Below are positions 1 through 6,028 of a DNA stretch of 6,028 nt, in pieces (position 1 is the first letter of the stretch; every line of letters begins with the position of its first letter). The stretch lies in IMG/VR virus record IMGVR_UViG_2778261084_000002; one strand, given 5' to 3'. Under the pieces are notes generated by a model. It ran no database searches. It was not told the origin of the DNA and saw only the letters and a program-made list of their open reading frames with translations. The position numbers and the translations under genes are program-made. Source of the DNA: a virus (taxonomy: Duplodnaviria; Heunggongvirae; Uroviricota; Caudoviricetes).

Positions 1-357
1 CTTGCCGTTCGTGGGGAGTGGCAGGAGCGGAAGATTGCGCAGGTCAGTAAGCCTGCCCCCGCAATTAATATCACACCCGTGGTCCCGGCTCCGCTGCCTC
101 CGGCGCTGGTCCCTGTTGTTGCGGCCAGCTCCCGCCCGGTGGCGGAGGCCATACGATCGCCAGTGGCATCAGTTCCTGCAGCTTCCCGTAATCGGGAGCC
201 GGTTGCCTCCGGATTTGGCGGTGAAATTCATGTTCATCTGCATAACGTTGTTACGCAGAATCCCCGCGAACTTGCGAAACTGGTAGGTGAAATGGTCAGG
301 GCAGAAATGGAACGGCGCGCCCGTGCCGGGCGTGGCAGTTTTTACGATAAAGATTGA
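1..357 (+). CDS. 3' end of a phage tail gene, 5'-truncated by the window edge; Pro/Ala-rich C-terminus lying directly upstream of the gpU-like gene, so possibly a tape-measure (P2 gpT-like) C-terminus
   Basis: Frame 1 is open from base 1 to TGA at 355-357. The mirror copy at 5672..6028 differs in this frame by synonymous changes (ccc/cct, gtc/gtt) and one V/I replacement, whereas the overlapping frame-2 ORF 2..286 accumulates replacements between copies. A GAGGAG Shine-Dalgarno for the next gene sits at 356-361. Product assignment is by gene order only. Confidence 0.45.
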   Translation, partial: LAVRGEWQERKIAQVSKPAPAINITPVVPAPLPPALVPVVAASSRPVAEAIRSPVASVPAASRNREPVASGFGGEIHVHLHNVVTQNPRELAKLVGEMVRAEMERRARAGRGSFYDKD

Positions 358-363
358 GGAGTC

Positions 364-858
364 ATGGCCATGATGATGATCTACGGCATGTTTGTTTTTG
401 AGCTGCGCACATTGCCGCATCAGCAGTTACAGCAAAACAAAAGCTGGCGGCATGTGAAAAATGAACGCGTTAACCGTTCAGCAAGCTGGCAGTATATCGG
501 TGCAGGAGATGATCGCATCGTTCTTTCTGGTGTGCTTTATCCTGAAATTACAGGTGGCGAAGTATCGCTGTCGCTGCTGACCACGCAGGCGTATACAGGA
601 CGACCCTGGCCTCTGATTGATGGCGTCGGGCAGATTTACGGCATGTATGTGCTGACTGAAACGAATACGACCCGTTCCGAGTTTGATCGCTACGGTAAGG
701 CGAAAAAGATAGAATTTTCACTGACCCTTGAACGCTGTGATGAGGATTTGCGGGAGCGCCTGCAATCCTCATCGTTCAGTGATATGCTGTCCGGCTTCAA
801 AGATAAGGTGACATCATCTCTTAACAGCGCGGCCAGTTCAGTTAAAGGGCTGTTCTGA
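364..858 (+). CDS. phage tail protein, P2 gpU-like (164 aa)
   Basis: ATG ORF with GAGGAG at 356-361; alternative in-frame ATGs at 370/373/376 have better spacing. The translation (YGMFVFELRTLPHQ ... IVLSGVLYPEITGG ... RPWPLIDGVGQIYGMYVL ... IEFSLTLERCDE) matches my recollection of the P2 GpU tail protein family. The mirror copy at 5171..5665 differs by 15 nt, 12 of them synonymous. Confidence 0.65.
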   Translation: MAMMMIYGMFVFELRTLPHQQLQQNKSWRHVKNERVNRSASWQYIGAGDDRIVLSGVLYPEITGGEVSLSLLTTQAYTGRPWPLIDGVGQIYGMYVLTETNTTRSEFDRYGKAKKIEFSLTLERCDEDLRERLQSSSFSDMLSGFKDKVTSSLNSAASSVKGLF

Positions 859-866
859 TTTTACAC

Positions 867-898
867 AAAAACCGCTAATGGTCAGATTAGCGGTTTTC
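867..898. terminator. bidirectional rho-independent terminator between convergent gpU-like and invertase genes
   Basis: Perfect hairpin: stem aaccgctaat (870-879), loop ggtcag, stem attagcggtt (886-895), flanked by an A-run upstream and T-run downstream, so U-tracts are available on both strands. The invertase stop codon (887-889, - strand) lies inside the stem. Confidence 0.6.
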
Positions 899-1486
899 AT
901 TTTCCTGAGTCTGCCCGGTTGTTTCTTCAGTCTGTATATCGCCTACAGGGTGATAACGATAAATCGTCGATGTGCCAATGCCGTAAATTATTGCCAGTTG
1001 TTTTCTGTCGTGCCCGTTTTTGATTAGCCTTGCTATTTGCTCATGCTGTTCTTTTGTCAGCTTCGGTCGACGTCCGCCTGTGCGCCCCCTTGCGCGCGCT
1101 GCCGCCAGCCCGGCCAGTGTACGTTCAACAATTAATTCACGTTCCATTTCAGCCAGGGCACCCATCACGTGGAAGAAAAAACGCCCCATTGGAGAAGATG
1201 TGTCTATGCTGTCGGTCAGACTGCGAAAATTAATCCCTCGCTCCCGTAGTTCCCCGACGAGAGAAATCAGATGTTTCATGCTTCGCCCGAGGCGATCCAG
1301 TTTCCAGACAACCAGCGTGTCACCTTTTTGAAGGCGCTTTAAAGCGCGTTTTAATCCCGGTCGGTCTGTCTTTGTCCCGCTTAATTTATCTTCAAATATT
1401 TGTTCACATCCTGCACAAACAAGAGCGTTTCGTTGCAGGTCTGTATTCTGGTCATTTGTTGATACCCTTACATAGCCAATCAGCAC
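887..1486 (-). CDS. site-specific serine DNA invertase, Gin/Pin/Cin/Hin (Din) family, left copy (199 aa from GTG)
   Basis: Translation from GTG (1486-1484) begins (M)LIGYVRVSTNDQNTDLQRNAL with the catalytic Ser in the VRVSTNDQ motif. It has the family's resolvase-type catalytic core (WKLDRLGRS, ERGINFRSLTDSIDTSSPMGRFFFHVMGALAEMEREL) and a C-terminal helix-turn-helix (GIGTSTIYRYHP). A GGGAGA Shine-Dalgarno precedes the GTG. The TTG at 1504 used by the ORF track is probably not the true start. Confidence 0.93.
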   Translation of the reverse strand: MLIGYVRVSTNDQNTDLQRNALVCAGCEQIFEDKLSGTKTDRPGLKRALKRLQKGDTLVVWKLDRLGRSMKHLISLVGELRERGINFRSLTDSIDTSSPMGRFFFHVMGALAEMERELIVERTLAGLAAARARGRTGGRRPKLTKEQHEQIARLIKNGHDRKQLAIIYGIGTSTIYRYHPVGDIQTEETTGQTQENENR

Positions 1487-1540
1487 ACTGAATCTCCCGT
1501 CCAAAAGCGCAAATCATGCCATGCAGGCCAGAAACGGCCA

Positions 1541-1566
1541 TTATTTAAAACCTCGGTTTACAGGAA
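1541..1566. other. left 26-bp invertase crossover site (gix/cix/pix/hix-like), variant form
   Basis: ttatttaaaacc TC ggtttacaggaa: two imperfect 12-bp inverted half-sites around a 2-bp core, at the inner end of the arm and adjacent to the invertase gene. It differs from the right-hand site by TT versus CC at positions 5-6 of the outer half-site and one base in the inner half-site. Confidence 0.8.
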
Positions 1567-1590
1567 ACGGTAAACAGGGCTGGTAACGCC

Positions 1591-2427
1591 GTGCAAAAAA
1601 ATGGCGATACCTTGTCCGGTGGGCTTACTTTTGAAAATGACTCAATCCTTGCCTGGATTCGAAATACTGACTGGGCGAAGATTGGATTTAAAAATGATGC
1701 TGATGGTGACACTGATTCATACATGTGGTTTGAAACAGGCGACAACGGCAATGAATATTTCAAATGGAGAAGCCGCCAGAGCACCACAACAAAAGACCTG
1801 ATGACGCTGAAATGGGATGCACTAAATATTCTGGTAAATGCCGTCATTAATGGCAGTCTTGGAGTTGGTACGACGAATGCGTTAGGTGGTAGCTCTATTG
1901 TTCTTGGTGATAATGACACCGGATTCAAACAGAATGGTGATGGTATTCTGGATGTTTACGCTAATAGTCAGCGAGTATTCCGCTTTCAGAATGGAGTTGC
2001 TATTGCTTTTAAAAATATTCAGGCAGGTGATAGTAAAAAGTTCTCGCTATCCAGCTCTAATACATCCACGAAGAATATTACCTTTAATTTATGGGGTGCT
2101 TCCACCCGTCCAGTGGTTGCAGAGTTAGGCGATGAGGCCGGATGGCATTTCTATAGCCAGCGAAATACAGATAACTCGGTAATATTTGCTGTTAACGGTC
2201 AGATGCAACCCAGCAACTGGGGAAATTTTGATTCCCGCTATGTGAAAGATGTTCGCCTGGGTACGCGAGTTGTTCAATTGATGGCGCGAGGTGGTCGTTA
2301 TGAAAAAGCCGGACACACGATTACCGGATTAAGAATCATTGGTGAAGTAGATGGCGATGATGAAGCCATCTTCAGGCCGATACAAAAATACATCAATGGC
2401 ACATGGTATAACGTTGCGCAGGTGTAA
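1591..2427 (+). CDS. tail-fibre C-terminal (receptor-binding) cassette Sv; reading frame open from 1549 but separated from the arm ATG (1516) by TAA 1546-1548
   Basis: 278 aa from GTG 1591 (frame open from 1549, 292 codons). Gly/Asn/Thr/Ser/Trp-rich composition typical of fibre tips. C-terminus RPIQKYINGTWYNVAQV shares the RPIQ-Y-INGTWYN motif with the opposite cassette. Stop is 3 nt before the tfa ATG. The first ~25 codons inside the segment (NLGLQETVNRAGNAVQKN) parallel the other cassette. No convincing Shine-Dalgarno precedes GTG 1591. Confidence 0.75.
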   Translation: MQKNGDTLSGGLTFENDSILAWIRNTDWAKIGFKNDADGDTDSYMWFETGDNGNEYFKWRSRQSTTTKDLMTLKWDALNILVNAVINGSLGVGTTNALGGSSIVLGDNDTGFKQNGDGILDVYANSQRVFRFQNGVAIAFKNIQAGDSKKFSLSSSNTSTKNITFNLWGASTRPVVAELGDEAGWHFYSQRNTDNSVIFAVNGQMQPSNWGNFDSRYVKDVRLGTRVVQLMARGGRYEKAGHTITGLRIIGEVDGDDEAIFRPIQKYINGTWYNVAQV

Positions 2428-2430
2428 GTT

Positions 2431-2958
2431 ATGCAGCATTTAAAGAACATTAAGTCAGGTAATCCAAAAACAAAAGAGCAATATCAGCTAACAAAGAATT
2501 TTGATGTTATCTGGTTATGGTCCGAAGACGGAAAAAACTGGTATGAGGAAGTGAAGAACTTTCAGCCAGACACAATAAAGATTGTTTACGATGAAAATAA
2601 TATTATTGTCGCTATCACCAGAGATGCCTCAACGCTTAATCCCGAAGGCTTTAGTGTCGTTGAGATTCCAGATATAACAGCCAATCGTCGTGCCGATGAT
2701 TCAGGGAAGTGGATGTTTAAGGACGGAACTGTGGTTAAACGGATTTATACGACAGATGAGCAGCAACAACAGGCAGAATCACAAAAGGCCGCATTGCTTT
2801 CCGAAGCTGAATCAGTCATCCAGCCGCTGGAACGCGCTGTCAGGCTGAATATGGCAACAGACGAGGAACGCACACGACTGGAAGCATGGGAACGTTACAG
2901 TGTTCTGGTCAACCGTGTGGATACGGCAAATCCTGAATGGCCACAAAAGCCTGAATAA
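2431..2958 (+). CDS. tail-fibre assembly protein (Tfa; Mu U / e14 TfaE-like chaperone), 175 aa
   Basis: ATG preceded by AGGTG. N-terminus [24 protein letters not shown]...EDGKNWYEE...FQPDT...[27 protein letters not shown] is the conserved Tfa N-domain, with a divergent C-terminal third. Tightly coupled to the upstream fibre cassette. Confidence 0.9.
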
Positions 2959-2963
2959 AAATT

Positions 2964-2983
2964 AAGGCCCGATAGAGGGCCTT
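2964..2983. terminator. short hairpin between the convergent tfa genes (possible bidirectional terminator)
   Basis: aaggccc (2964-2970), loop gataga, gggcctt (2977-2983), preceded by an A-rich run and lying in the 28-bp gap between the two stop codons. The stem is only 7 bp and the T-tract is weak. Confidence 0.35.
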
Positions 2984-2986
2984 GTC

Positions 2987-3520
2987 TCATTCAGGTTGTT
3001 CGGGAAATGTTACTGGCAGGCTGGAGGTGTCTGTGGATTCGACTTTCTGCGCGTAGAGCATCCACTCGGTTAATTTTTGTTTATTCTCGTCGGAAATGAT
3101 GCCCAGCCGTAGCTGTGAGTCCCATAGCTGGGTTTTATCCCTGACAAGTTGCAACAGGCTTTGCTTTTCATTCTCTGCCTGCTGCCTCTGTTCCTCCTCG
3201 GTATAAGTTCGCTTTATCACTACGCCATCTTTGAACATCCATTTACCCGAAATATCAGCCCGGCGATTTGCTGTAATATCAGGAACCTCAACGACGCTTG
3301 CGCCTTCTGGATTAATTGCTGAAACATCCTTTTCAATACAAATAATAACGTCGTTGTGGTCATAGACCATTTTCAACGTATCAGGCTGAAAGTTCTTTTG
3401 TTCCTCATACCAGTTTTTCCCATCCTCTGTATAAAGCCATTTGATGTTAAATTGTTTCGTTAGCTGGTATTGTTCTTTTGTTTTAGGGTTGCCAGCAGTA
3501 ATATTTTTTAAGTGCATCAT
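2987..3520 (-). CDS. tail-fibre assembly protein Tfa' (second, divergent copy), 177 aa
   Basis: [24 protein letters not shown]...EDGKNWYEE...FQPDT...[30 protein letters not shown]: about 70% identical to the other Tfa over the N-terminal ~105 aa, with an unrelated C-terminus. GGGGAG Shine-Dalgarno upstream; start is 2 nt after the Sv' stop. Confidence 0.9.
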   Translation of the reverse strand: MMHLKNITAGNPKTKEQYQLTKQFNIKWLYTEDGKNWYEEQKNFQPDTLKMVYDHNDVIICIEKDVSAINPEGASVVEVPDITANRRADISGKWMFKDGVVIKRTYTEEEQRQQAENEKQSLLQLVRDKTQLWDSQLRLGIISDENKQKLTEWMLYAQKVESTDTSSLPVTFPEQPE

Positions 3521-3522
3521 AA

Positions 3523-4518
3523 TTAAATACTCCCCGCGTTATACCACGTTCCATTAATGCAATACTGAATTGGCCTTGCCTGAGTTGTATCAATTAATGC
3601 ATCACGGTTTCCGTTAACTGAACCCGTAACGACATAACCTGACCTGTCAGACCAGCCGGGACCATTCCATGTCTGAACAGATGACAGACCGCCAAGGCGA
3701 ATACCTGTAATAAACCTTGAGTTACATTCTGCCTGCGTATATGCACCAACATCTCCCGCAGAGGGTTTGCGGGTCGTGGTGTAAAACTCTGACCAGTCAG
3801 CCTCAAATCCATAACCATCACGCGCTGAACGATAAAAAATACCGCCGTTCCTGTAATTCACGCGGAACTGTACAGCAGGGCAGCTCCCCGTATTCATATT
3901 GAAGTGGAGGATTAATGTCGATGCGCCACCAATATTTGCGTTATAGACCCCGCTATTCCAGTTCCAGCCAACAGCTTTATCATTTCCGACAGTGCTTCCT
4001 GTTTGCCCTAAAGCAAATGCAGGCTGCTGGTTTTTCGTGTTGTAGTCTCGTCGCCAGCCAGGAGCATAAGCATCACCATGATTAATATAGGTGAATTGAG
4101 CGTTAGTAATTCCGCCGCCGCTGGACGTACTCGGCGTAGTAACGCGTATGGTCATTGCGCCGCGAGTGCCAATAACTTCCACCACAGCACCTGCAAGACA
4201 AATATTTCCGCAACCTGTATCTGTAATGACCTTATTATTTGCATAAGCCCATGAGCCTTTGCACATCCAGTAAGGATGGTTAAATGCTCCCTGACTCTCC
4301 AGCCACGAAATAAATTGCGCGGTTGTCCAGACCTGACTATCGCCACCAATATTCAGCCATGAGCTATATGCCCGGCAGGCACCAATATTTTTGGTGAAGG
4401 TATCTTTTCCTGGAATATCTGCACCGTTCTGATTTTTCTGTAATGCGCCAGAAGCCTGATTTACCGTTTCCAGTAAACCGAGGTTTTGGATAATGGCCGT
4501 TTCCGGCCTGCATGGCAT
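3523..4518 (-). CDS. tail-fibre C-terminal (receptor-binding) cassette Sv', 331 aa, currently in frame with an ATG located in the right arm
   Basis: ORF runs from ATG 4518-4516 through the right crossover site into the segment, so MPCRPETAII is arm-encoded and QNLGLLETVNQ... begins within the site. C-terminus RPIQYCINGTWYNAGSI carries the shared motif. No good Shine-Dalgarno precedes the ATG, and an in-frame TGA lies 7 codons upstream, so there is no longer constant N-terminal part. Confidence 0.8.
   Translation of the reverse strand: MPCRPETAIIQNLGLLETVNQASGALQKNQNGADIPGKDTFTKNIGACRAYSSWLNIGGDSQVWTTAQFISWLESQGAFNHPYWMCKGSWAYANNKVITDTGCGNICLAGAVVEVIGTRGAMTIRVTTPSTSSGGGITNAQFTYINHGDAYAPGWRRDYNTKNQQPAFALGQTGSTVGNDKAVGWNWNSGVYNANIGGASTLILHFNMNTGSCPAVQFRVNYRNGGIFYRSARDGYGFEADWSEFYTTTRKPSAGDVGAYTQAECNSRFITGIRLGGLSSVQTWNGPGWSDRSGYVVTGSVNGNRDALIDTTQARPIQYCINGTWYNAGSI
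4466..4494 (+). promoter_or_regulatory. putative sigma70 promoter for the right invertase, overlapping the crossover site
   Basis: -10 candidate GATAAT (4489-4494) with a weak -35 TTTCCA (4467-4472) and 16-bp spacer, ~55 bp upstream of GTG 4548. The mirror position in the left arm (1540..1567, - strand) has AATAAT. Based on sequence inspection only; in characterised Din systems (as I recall for Mu gin and P1 cin) the invertase promoter sits at the adjacent crossover site. Confidence 0.25.
4468..4493. other. right 26-bp invertase crossover site (gix/cix/pix/hix-like), canonical-looking form
   Basis: + strand ttccagtaaaccgaggttttggataa; - strand ttatccaaaacc TC ggtttactggaa. In inverted orientation relative to the left site and 55 bp upstream of the invertase start. 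Confidence 0.8.
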
Positions 4519-4547
4519 GATTTGCGCTTTTGGACGGGAGATTCAGC

Positions 4548-5135
4548 GTGCTGATTGGCTATGTAAGGGTATCAACAAATGACCAGAATACAGACTTGCA
4601 ACGAAACGCTCTTGTTTGTGCAGGATGCGAACAAATATTTGAAGATAAATTAAGCGGGACAAAGACAGACCGACCGGGATTAAAACGCGCTTTAAAGCGC
4701 CTTCAAAAAGGTGACACGCTGGTTGTCTGGAAACTGGATCGCCTCGGGCGAAGCATGAAACATCTGATTTCTCTCGTCGGGGAACTACGGGAGCGAGGGA
4801 TTAATTTTCGCAGTCTGACCGACAGCATAGATACATCTTCTCCAATGGGGCGTTTTTTCTTCCACGTGATGGGTGCCCTAGCTGAAATGGAACGTGAATT
4901 AATTGTTGAACGTACACTGGCCGGACTGGCGGCAGCGCGCGCACGGGGGCGCACAGGCGGACGTCGACCGAAGCTGACAAAAGAACAGCATGAGCAAATA
5001 GCAAGGCTGATTAAAAACGGTCACGACAGAAAACAACTGGCAATAATTTACGGCATTGGTACATCGACGATTTATCGTTACCACCCCGCAGGAGAATCAA
5101 GCGGAACAATAGAGAAGAGTCAGAAAACAAAATAA
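4548..5135 (+). CDS. site-specific serine DNA invertase, Gin/Pin/Cin/Hin (Din) family, right copy (195 aa from GTG)
   Basis: Same core protein as the left copy (12 nucleotide differences, all synonymous, by hand alignment) but a different C-terminal tail after ...IYRYHP (AGESSGTIEKSQKTK versus VGDIQTEETTGQTQENENR). GTG start with GGGAGA Shine-Dalgarno. Confidence 0.93.
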   Translation: MLIGYVRVSTNDQNTDLQRNALVCAGCEQIFEDKLSGTKTDRPGLKRALKRLQKGDTLVVWKLDRLGRSMKHLISLVGELRERGINFRSLTDSIDTSSPMGRFFFHVMGALAEMERELIVERTLAGLAAARARGRTGGRRPKLTKEQHEQIARLIKNGHDRKQLAIIYGIGTSTIYRYHPAGESSGTIEKSQKTK

Positions 5136-5162
5136 CCGCTAATCTGACCATTAGCGGTTTTT
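5134..5162. terminator. bidirectional rho-independent terminator between the invertase and the convergent gpU-like gene
   Basis: aaccgctaat (5134-5143), loop ctgacc, attagcggtt (5150-5159), then TTTTT; A-rich on the other side. Mirror of 867..898. Confidence 0.6.
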
Positions 5163-5170
5163 GTGTTAAA

Positions 5171-5665
5171 TCAGAACAGCCCTTTAACTGAAGTGGCCGC
5201 GCTGTTAAGAGATGATGTCACCTTATCTTTGAAGCCGGACAGCATATCACTGAACGATGAGGATTGCAGGCGCTCCCGCAAATCCTCATCACAGCGTTCA
5301 AGGGTCAGTGAAAACTCTATCTTTTTCGCCTTGCCGTAGCGATCAAACTCGGAGCGGGTCGTACTTGTGTCAGTCAGAACATACATGCCGTAAATCTGCC
5401 CGACGCCATCAATCAGAGGCCAGGGGCGTCCGGTATACGCCTGTGTGGTCAGCAGCGACAGGGACACTTCGCCACCTGTGATTTCAGGATAAAGCACACC
5501 AGAAAGAACGATGCGATCATCACCTGCACCGATATACTGCCAGCTTGCTGAACGGTTAACGCGTTCATTTTTCACATGCCGCCAGCTTTTGTTTTGCTGT
5601 AACTGCTGATGCGGCAATGTGCGCAGCTCAAAAACAAACATGCCGTAGATCATCATCATGGCCAT
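5171..5665 (-). CDS. phage tail protein, P2 gpU-like (164 aa), second copy
   Basis: Mirror of 364..858 with three amino-acid differences (E->D, N->S, S->T) and 12 synonymous changes. Confidence 0.65.
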   Translation of the reverse strand: MAMMMIYGMFVFELRTLPHQQLQQNKSWRHVKNERVNRSASWQYIGAGDDRIVLSGVLYPEITGGEVSLSLLTTQAYTGRPWPLIDGVGQIYGMYVLTDTSTTRSEFDRYGKAKKIEFSLTLERCDEDLRERLQSSSFSDMLSGFKDKVTSSLNSAATSVKGLF

Positions 5666-5671
5666 GACTCC

Positions 5672-6028
5672 TCAATCTTTATCGTAAAAACTGCCACGCC
5701 CGGCACGGGCGCGCCGTTCCATTTCTGCCCTGACCATTTCACCGACCAGTTTCGCCAGTTCGCGGGGATTCTGCGTAATAACGTTATGCAGATGAACATG
5801 AATTTCACCACCAAATCCGGAGGCAACAGGCTCCCGGTTACGGGAAGCTGCAGGAACTGATGCCACTGGCGATCGTATGGCCTCTGCCACCGGGCGGGAG
5901 CTGGCCGCAACAACAGGGACCAGCGCCGGAGGCAGCGGAGCCGGAACCACAGGTGTGATATTAATTGCGGGGGCAGGCTTACTGACCTGCGCAATCTTCC
6001 GCTCCTGCCACTCCCCACGAACGGCAAG
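5672..6028 (-). CDS. 3' end of a phage tail gene (possibly tape-measure C-terminus), second copy, truncated by the window edge
   Basis: Mirror of 1..357; the frame is open to the window edge, with one V/I replacement in the last 92 codons. Confidence 0.45.
   Translation of the reverse strand, partial: LAVRGEWQERKIAQVSKPAPAINITPVVPAPLPPALVPVVAASSRPVAEAIRSPVASVPAASRNREPVASGFGGEIHVHLHNVITQNPRELAKLVGEMVRAEMERRARAGRGSFYDKD

Follow-up and report, generated by a model that had tools for sequence, protein, structure and literature searches.

The closest described relatives of the locus analysed here are the tail-fibre inversion switches of the Din family, namely the G segment of Mu with its invertase Gin (also in D108), the C segment of P1 and P7 with Cin and the P segment of e14 with Pin, all of which follow the same logic. 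In a Mu-like switch, inversion by Gin of the segment between two gix crossover sites determines which of the two variable exons, each accompanied by its own chaperone, completes the constant part of the fibre. One gix of Mu accordingly adjoins the constant part Sc of gene S. P1/P7 and e14 have other flanking genomes, with a single invertase each. Gin and Hin normally recombine sites separated by a few kb within a single supercoiled domain, where the enhancer is in cis. The P88-like genomes, including those of Escherichia phage P88, Xuanwuvirus P884B11 and Citrobacter phage Shae_phiSM, are the normal home of all the parts described below, in the order tape measure, gpU, terminator, invertase and invertible segment. 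They carry one invertase, and their far gix leads into the fibre constant part and then gpI, gpJ, gpW and gpV.

We analysed a window of 6,028 nucleotides, which is the whole of contig NNWW01000090.1 (recorded as the reverse complement of the window) from GCA_002486795.1, a short-read draft assembly of an E. coli ST641 isolate; the putative linkage of arm A, segment and arm B is that of this one contig. Judged from similarity, the centre of the window is a tail-fibre segment of the ordinary invertible Mu type, as carried by P2-like E. coli prophages, and it lies between the invertase flanks of two different but related prophages. Its components are already known, being those of a Mu/P1-type tail-fibre switch in the usual P2-like prophage setting. 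The segment has the same Sv-U / U'-Sv' organisation as that of Mu at ~94% DNA identity, and the window has an invertase 86% identical to Gin (over 181 aa for the B allele described below) and gix sites alike at 24-25 of 26 positions. The P1/P7 and e14 segments are 89-95% identical, and the three P88-like genomes match at 94-96% DNA identity over 66-68% of the window. In contrast with Mu, both gix sites adjoin invertase genes, there is no Sc, and the flanks consist of P2-type tail genes rather than Mu genes. At the far gix, where the fibre constant part follows in the P88-like genomes, the window has instead a second arm of invertase, gpU and tape measure in inverted orientation.

The invertible segment and its flanking arms

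Between the crossover cores, the G/C-type invertible segment spans positions 1555-4479, with 89-95% identity to Mu G, D108, P7 and P1 C. Its plus strand codes for an Sv-type variable C-terminal fibre part (1591-2427, 278-aa ORF, PF21446 Gp34_trimer) and for the tail-fibre assembly protein U (2431-2958, 175 aa, PF02413 Caudo_TAP, E=7.5e-38). The minus strand codes for the assembly protein U' (2987-3520, 177 aa, PF02413, E=2e-36) and for an Sv'-type variable fibre part (3523-4518, 331-aa ORF, PF12604 gp37_C). Alternative fibre exons with their own chaperones are thus found on opposite strands, as in the Din family. The Sv part has no constant part attached in the window and is joined to it as a 716-aa fibre in normal prophages; Sv' is joined to the constant part in CT30-type prophages, giving a 744-aa fibre. 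The Sv' ORF contains a mosaic tract (3599-3996), and its ATG falls in the spacer between invertase and gix, outside the segment. The near-identical CT30 and EC12 prophages carry the segment in opposite orientations relative to the invertase, so that both orientations occur among these prophages.

The left gix (1541-1566, TTATTTAAAACC-TC-GGTTTACAGGAA, core at 1553-1554) shares 24 of its 26 positions with the Mu gix, TTATCCAAAACCTCGGTTTACAGGAA. The right gix (4468-4493, core at 4480-4481) is inverted with respect to it and reads TTATCCAAAACC-TC-GGTTTACTGGAA in reverse complement. These two 26-bp sites present AAAACC-TC-GGTTTAC on opposite strands and, with 24-25 of 26 positions shared with Mu gix, are of the Din-family type. 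In normal relatives, the fibre constant part starts at window position 1549 and runs leftward; the fibre-constant/left-end junction has the sequence …GTTATCGAATACC-TC-GGTTTACAGG…. Neither crossover site of the window has a constant 5' fibre part beside it, both adjoining invertase genes.

Both arms code for Gin-family serine DNA invertases in intact reading frames. The A allele (887-1486, minus strand, 199 aa) is given as called on the source contig, and its ORF reaches a TTG at 1504; the B allele lies at 4548-5135 on the plus strand (195 aa). The two copies have the domains of Din-family enzymes, i.e. the resolvase catalytic domain PF00239 (E=1.5e-50) and the C-terminal HTH domain PF02796 (HTH_7). 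In Din systems, the 5' part of the invertase gene holds a Fis-bound recombinational enhancer that acts in cis; the ~94% DNA similarity to Mu reaches ~400 nt into the invertase gene, an indirect hint of such an element here.

Beyond the invertases, each arm carries what is probably the end of a P2-family tail module, composed of gpU (PF06995, Phage_P2_GpU) and the 3' end of the tape-measure gene. The gpU-like genes lie at 364-858 (arm A, plus strand, E=5.5e-39) and at 5171-5665 (arm B, minus strand, E=2.7e-39). The exact arm A protein is present in many normal prophages, and the exact B-allele protein in the normal CT30 prophage. The gpU start is annotated in the source record to give 162 aa; a 164-aa version is the other option. 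The tape-measure (gpT) 3' ends, both cut by the contig ends, lie at 1-357 (arm A, plus strand), continuous with PF10145 genes in homologous prophages, and at 5672-6028 (arm B, minus strand), as called on the source contig. The genes upstream fall beyond the contig ends; sheath, tube, gpE and gpD precede the tape measure in all homologous loci. A hairpin terminator with a 12-pair stem followed by a T run (868-897, direct-repeat family D2) sits between the convergent gpU and invertase genes of arm A, and its mirror (5126-5167, inverted repeat I9) is found in arm B. By Pfam matches, the gene content of both arms is therefore as the first-pass annotation gave it: tail gene 3' end, gpU-like gene, terminator and invertase.

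Sequence comparison within the window confirmed that 1-1602 and 4432-6028 form an inverted repeat, at 95-97% identity, far above chance expectation; the palindrome claimed at the outset is thus real as a feature of the contig. Identity is 97% for the outer pair (1-895 / 5134-6028) and 95% for the inner pair (939-1602 / 4432-5095). The 43-nt stretch between these blocks (896-938) is non-homologous and codes for the two differing C-terminal tails of the invertases. The symmetry is exact, with base 1 paired with base 6028. Arms of ~1.57 kb extending to both edges had been proposed. The edges are indeed reached, for the trivial reason that the window is the entire contig, but the repeat goes ~30 nt past 1574, because it takes in the gix sites and, within the segment, another ~35 nt that are conserved in part. 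The hand counts of substitutions were exact: the gpU alleles differ at 15 positions over 492 nt, with 12 synonymous and 3 non-synonymous differences (dN/dS of 0.07), and the invertases at 12 positions over the first 185 codons, all 12 synonymous. Between the tape-measure 3' ends, 8 of 9 differences are synonymous.

Two prophage lineages joined at a crossover site

Their matches identify the arms as alleles from two P88-like (P2-family) prophage lineages in circulation. Arm A shows 2 mismatches to a prophage in strain 19AR1724. GCA_034677465.1, with an A-type invertase tail and the same segment, matches positions 1-4497 at 99.3% identity. From the other side, 1550-6028 matches the normal prophage SRR10825167_143 with 1 mismatch, and the fibre constant part comes next there. 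The segment itself (1550-4497) has 0 mismatches to that prophage and is of a single lineage throughout. The arm B lineage is that of CT30, EC12 and SRR10825167, and each arm is ~99.9% identical to the prophage of other strains.

The synonymous bias had been read as the mark of two selected gene copies evolving independently. It did not arise in place: since each arm is ~99.9% identical to prophages of unrelated strains, the divergence is older than the join. In-place duplication followed by divergence was ruled out accordingly, the arms matching two natural haplotypes. The 50-odd differences between the arms reproduce these haplotypes, so that the arms are no fold-back of one sequence, in agreement with the first proposal, nor the product of sequencing errors, and a long-read hairpin chimera is likewise ruled out. 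The synonymous divergence pattern is compatible, however, with an assembly that chimerically links two co-resident prophages. A chimeric switch within the segment has no support, the whole segment corresponding to one natural prophage without mismatch.

The two lineages meet at the left crossover site. The A-lineage match stops at 1561 and the B-lineage segment match begins at 1550, with the gix core (1553-1554) in between. In the contig, the invertase flank of the second prophage lineage takes the place of the fibre-side flank precisely at the gix core, and a crossover site as the position of the join, one of those first envisaged, is thus borne out.

With any segment sequence permitted, the invertase-segment-invertase layout was found in 0 of the 5,426 complete E. 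coli genomes. No record covering at least 80% of the window was detected in these genomes, in 50,697 phage records or in 72,556 plasmids, which rules out a standard arrangement of a described phage family. A literature search for Gin-type inversion between prophages returned no report. An evolved two-invertase module, or an inverted duplication in place that diverged under selection, would fit with both copies being intact and with their differences being almost all synonymous. Nevertheless, we consider it highly improbable, given the ~99.9% identity of the arms to prophages of unrelated strains, the lack of the layout in any finished genome, phage or plasmid record searched, and the loss of the fibre constant part, which the switch exists to serve. 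Given that no complete genome, phage or plasmid record shows the layout, it therefore results from mis-threading by the assembler or from real recombination. With either reading, it is no new kind of system, all its parts being ordinary.

Assembly path or physical joint

The best explanation, and a moderately probable one on these sequence comparisons, is an assembler path through a segment common to two co-resident prophages. The ST641 isolate would carry two related P88-like (P2-family) prophages, each with the normal order of tape measure, gpU and terminator, followed in the opposite orientation by a Gin-type invertase, then gix, the segment (Sv U / U' Sv'), gix and the fibre constant part, in the same orientation as the invertase. 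The two prophages would be identical upstream of window position 78, have the same invertible segment and be ~3% apart in the gpU-invertase stretch, with their segments in opposite or mixed flip states among the sequenced cells. Short-read de Bruijn assembly would have collapsed the common segment and then threaded invertase flank A through it to invertase flank B. Pairing each segment with one invertase flank and one fibre-constant flank, which is the arrangement in every finished genome, would fit the k-mers and coverage equally. Both the second segment copy and the mis-threading are what we infer from the following observations.

Each three-quarters of the window is a contiguous region of a normal prophage elsewhere (SRR10825167_143 and GCA_034677465.1), and the zero count for the layout among complete genomes, phages and plasmids also argues for mis-threading. 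Double lysogens for this phage type exist, such as EC416, and the tape-measure-gpU modules found outnumber the genomes by ~11%. Invertible prophage segments switched by the same enzyme family flip continually in clonal E. coli cultures (PMC4272514). Linkage across the segment is beyond the reach of read pairs, because 2.9 kb exceeds ordinary paired-end inserts.

The contig ends are consistent with the same explanation. Both break off at the same homologous base, and the outermost 77 nt are the same in both arms, with the first difference at position 78. The ends share one k-mer in reverse complement and first differ at k+1 (k=77), as in a collapsed-repeat contig; such ends would be expected of a de Bruijn edge that departs from a shared vertex at k=77. 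The arms of the closest reference lineages do not differ between -41 and +77. This k=77 argument is weakened by an unrelated MEGAHIT k=119 contig that likewise begins at window base 1, although the look-up by exact protein may itself have selected for this shared start. In that look-up, the cut tape-measure fragments matched two contigs only, the source and an unrelated one from a metagenome. The exact 40-nt B-arm pattern was found in one unrelated P2-like contig without invertase among viral contigs, and in none of the metagenome contigs or genome contigs.

Other features speak against mis-threading. A cautious assembler should halt at a branching 2.9-kb repeat, and an arm A-segment-arm B contig arises most naturally from an unbranched graph, hence from a real structure. 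The arms have three shared runs of 121-221 nt and are phased across all of them without error, a sign of careful assembly elsewhere in the contig. A site-specific event would directly explain why the lineages switch exactly at the gix core (1550-1561).

If the sample had contained two E. coli strains or subclones, one with normal variant A and one with normal variant B, and the assembler had merged their oppositely oriented segments, this would generate the same assembly graph as a double lysogen. A-type and B-type prophages occupy the same att site beside ihfA-pheT in different strains, so that the two could have been in the same place. However, the record is that of an isolate, used as a single ST641 genome, and many further split contigs would be expected of a mixture, which we therefore regard as improbable.

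A real structure is a lesser yet sizeable possibility. In a double lysogen, prophage A would have contributed its invertase-side gix to the recombination and prophage B its fibre-side gix. With both prophages in the same orientation, whether in tandem at a single att site or at separate sites, Gin acting between gixL of one and gixR of the other would invert the intervening DNA and create two joints, one with the order invertase-segment-invertase and a second with constant part-segment-constant part. For prophages facing each other, deletion would yield the same invertase-segment-invertase joint. Alternatively, a RecA-dependent exchange might have occurred inside two oppositely flipped homologous segments, with the same outcome. 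Both prophages would be broken for fibre switching and excision, because the segment at the joint, although flippable, is without a fibre constant part. Recombination between two related tail modules in opposite orientation had been suggested as the origin of the window. The join at gix and the two lineages agree with that proposal, but the orientation does not, as inversion between gix sites requires prophages in the same orientation and an opposite pair gives the product by deletion only.

A real joint would account for the lineage switch within 1550-1561, spanning the 2-bp core, for the segment being all of one lineage (0 mismatches over 1550-4497) and for both invertase genes being intact. 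Such a contig is also what would come from an unbranched graph closed off at its ends by a collapsed inverted repeat, and both junctions must occur in the reads, because reads supply the k-mers of the contig. Conversely, the structure is absent from the 5,426 complete E. coli genomes, ~150 of which have at least two tape-measure-gpU modules, and its one source of support is a 6-kb short-read contig. If made by Gin, it would also require action over at least 30 kb, instead of the usual few kb with a cis enhancer. That a Gin-type invertase made a physical joint between gix sites of separate co-resident prophages is more doubtful still, even if a tandem dilysogen at ihfA-pheT is plausible because the two types share this att site.

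Significance and documented rearrangements

As things stand, the biological weight of the locus is small. The lesson is for assembly: an invertible segment common to two related prophages can give palindromic short-read contigs that mimic new architectures. Synonymous-biased divergence of the arms is no safeguard, as such arms may simply represent two phage lineages in circulation, one allele from each. A real joint would document exchange between co-resident prophages mediated by invertase sites or by the segment, a modest but concrete addition on polylysogen rearrangement and prophage immobilisation. A joint made by Gin would represent a natural case of a Din invertase rearranging the chromosome between separate elements, and would imply that tens of kb or more were inverted or deleted, that both prophages are locked in place and that a still-flippable, functionless segment was left between two invertase genes.

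Rearrangements between IS elements, tuf and rhs repeats are documented in C. rodentium (PMC3072379), and a 700-kb inversion between 1-kb inverted repeats in E. coli (PMC4272514). Like those cases, the joint of the window, if real, would have formed where a mobile element present in two copies underwent exchange. Unlike them, it is seen in one short-read contig, and its exchange point is a site-specific crossover site.

Inverted arms and the lineages they match

The first-pass annotation described the window as a diverged palindrome, and the alignments bear this out, showing a near-perfect one. With base 1 opposite base 6028, positions 1-895 and 5134-6028 are 97% identical in inverted orientation, and positions 939-1602 and 4432-5095 are 95% identical. 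The sole break lies at 896-938, where the unrelated C-terminal tails of the two invertases are encoded. After 184 identical residues, these tails read VGDIQTEETTGQTQENENR and AGESSGTIEKSQKTK (896-938 vs 5096-5133), and the replaced stretch adjoins a terminator hairpin common to both arms. Recounting reproduced exactly the earlier hand counts for the gpU-like genes (15 differences, 12 synonymous) and the invertase cores (12, all synonymous); the tape-measure ends differ at nine positions, eight of them synonymous. Arm-versus-arm dS is ~0.09-0.11, with dN/dS of 0-0.07.

A prophage of strain 19AR1724 differs from window positions 1-1561 at two positions, and a normal prophage in run SRR10825167, which carries the constant part of the fibre gene to the left of 1550, differs from 1550-6028 at one. 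The lineage switch thus falls within 1550-1561, an interval that includes the core of the gix crossover site (1553-1554). Since the arms match separate prophage lineages this closely, divergence after a local duplication was rejected. The synonymous-biased differences are pre-existing variation between two phage lineages in circulation. The first-pass interpretation is partly supported: two distinct lineages do meet at the crossover site, but the bias itself predates their joining.

Such prophages are commonly mosaic. In the finished genome of C11 (CP182408.1), the arm equivalent to 1-1546 is B-like (right-arm lineage) over 1-862, A-like (left-arm lineage) over 863-1437 and B-like again over 1438-1546, evidence that homologous exchange among these prophages is frequent. 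A natural prophage in GCA_034677465.1 combines an A-type invertase tail with the window's segment. Compared with the segments of EC12, CT30 and C11, which are identical elsewhere, the window has 26 substitutions across a 400-nt tract of Sv' (3599-3996). Two retrieved loci (L013 and L021) equal the window across this tract and the GCA_034677465.1 prophage differs at 3599 alone; the tract is a brief stretch of recombined sequence in the receptor-binding region of the fibre.

Prophage setting and occurrence of the layout

In E. coli the module resides in prophages of the P2 family that are of the phage P88 / Xuanwuvirus type, and at least 80% of an arm was found in 618 of 5,426 complete genomes. 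Their normal order is ogr and gpD, then, divergently, sheath, tube, gpE, tape measure and gpU, followed on the opposite strand by the invertase, gix, the segment, gix, the fibre constant part, gpI, gpJ, gpW and gpV. CT30 and EC12 harbour near-identical prophages with the segment in opposite orientations, and the switch is thus active in nature.

Among the records searched, no match covered >75% of the window, each spanning either 1-4497 or 1537-6028. An arms-only query, in which Ns linked the two arms so as to tolerate any intervening segment up to ~3.3 kb, gave single-arm places (27% coverage) and no paired inverted arms in all complete genomes. Based on these two results, a dual-invertase layout as the standard arrangement was rejected, and we give next to no credence to an evolved two-invertase module.

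Several related loci are degraded: the segment of L022 and L026 (from window ~3243) breaks off within U' and gives way to unrelated genes plus an integrase, and in L040 (3299-3447) the fibre constant part is reduced to ~150 nt beside gix. The cargo between ogr and gpD varies between prophage lineages at one ihfA-pheT att site (L015, 2677-5795; L016, 2399-5847; L012, 36-3484). It comprises GapS6a and a 930-residue protein in 19AR1724, and a SIR2-family protein and a DUF87 ATP-binding protein in EC12 and CT30. The cargoes resemble anti-phage defence cassettes that have been exchanged at the P2 hotspot. The finished genome of EC416 (AP027404.1) harbours two P88-like prophages ~1.8 Mb apart in the same orientation, with identical gpU, invertase, fibre and baseplate proteins; in one copy the tape measure and U are both frameshifted. 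EC416 would offer a natural setting in which to test exchange between prophages.

Contig ends and origin of the joint

The window corresponds, in reverse complement, to the whole of contig NNWW01000090.1 (6,028 bp) in draft assembly GCA_002486795.1, from an E. coli ST641 isolate (PMC8467794). The first arm-versus-arm difference is at position 78, and hence both ends are one 77-mer in reverse complement. This looks like a k=77 de Bruijn edge where two variants leave one shared vertex, with the caveat that an unrelated MEGAHIT k=119 metagenome contig (ENA ERZ27295837 k119_65295) also begins at base 1, a probable coincidence because the look-up behind it selects precisely for such starts. A second, independent metagenome contig (JGI Ga0169785_102760) begins 11 nt within the opposite end of the window; assemblies seem to break recurrently in this part of the tape-measure gene. 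In keeping with the k=77 picture, identity between the closest reference lineages runs from -41 to +77. Three shared runs of 121-221 nt inside the arms were traversed with perfect phasing; the assembler thus drew on read pairs, and the sequence shared upstream of position 1 has to exceed the insert.

The unusual layout is probably an assembly path. We somewhat favour a path through a segment common to the two prophages of a double lysogen. The isolate would carry two normal prophages, as in EC416, with upstream tail genes and segment in common, a different gpU-invertase stretch, and segments in opposite or mixed flip states. Prophages with long identical upstream tracts likely share the segment too, which makes the assembly graph ambiguous, and prophage segments of this kind keep inverting within clonal cultures of E. 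coli (PMC4272514). The collapsed 2.9-kb segment would then allow two equally k-mer-consistent traversals, and the assembler would have emitted the one absent from finished genomes. Indeed, the layout occurs in none of the 5,426, ~150 of which have at least two tape-measure-gpU modules.

That same absence weighs against a real joint produced by recombination between two prophages, which we consider a serious if less probable explanation. In its favour, threading a branching 2.9-kb repeat is not what a careful assembler should do, and the lineages switch exactly at the crossover core. Moreover, since A-type and B-type prophages share one att site by ihfA-pheT, a tandem dilysogen is conceivable, in which the sites would lie ~30 kb apart. 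The joint could arise by Gin-catalysed inversion between the invertase-side gix of one prophage and the fibre-side gix of the other if both have the same orientation, by deletion if they face one another, or by homologous recombination inside segments that are in opposite flip states. A mixed culture is a minor alternative of low probability. Both joints (left arm to left segment end, right arm to right end) must be present in the reads, though not necessarily on one molecule.

Gene content, function and known inversion systems

From its outer end inward, each arm holds the final 118 codons of a tape-measure gene and a tail gene of gpU-like type (PF06995), then a hairpin terminator and, convergent with gpU, a serine invertase (PF00239 and PF02796). 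Two 26-bp gix sites with a TC core lie in inverted orientation at 1541-1566 and 4468-4493, 35-40 nt from the invertase start in both arms. Between them are Sv (a 278-residue ORF, PF21446) and U (175 residues) on one strand, and U' (177 residues) and Sv' (a 331-residue ORF, PF12604) on the other. The Sv' ORF (4518 ATG to 3523) has its start codon in the spacer between invertase and gix, beyond the invertible segment, and its frame runs on through gix. In the mirror position of the left arm (1516-1548), this spacer frame is closed by a TAA, from TT at 1545-1546 in the outer half-site.

With two intact invertase genes and two intact sites, the segment could still invert. Nevertheless, there is no fibre constant part to which Sv or Sv' can be joined, which leaves the layout without switching function; it is a by-product, of assembly or of recombination.

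The components themselves are those of a system already known. The invertase shares 86% identity with Mu Gin, the sites agree with Mu gix in 24-25 of their 26 positions, and the segment has the same organisation as the Mu G and P1 C segments, with 89-95% DNA identity. In contrast with P88-type prophages, in which the fibre constant part lies beyond the far gix, the window carries a second invertase arm there.
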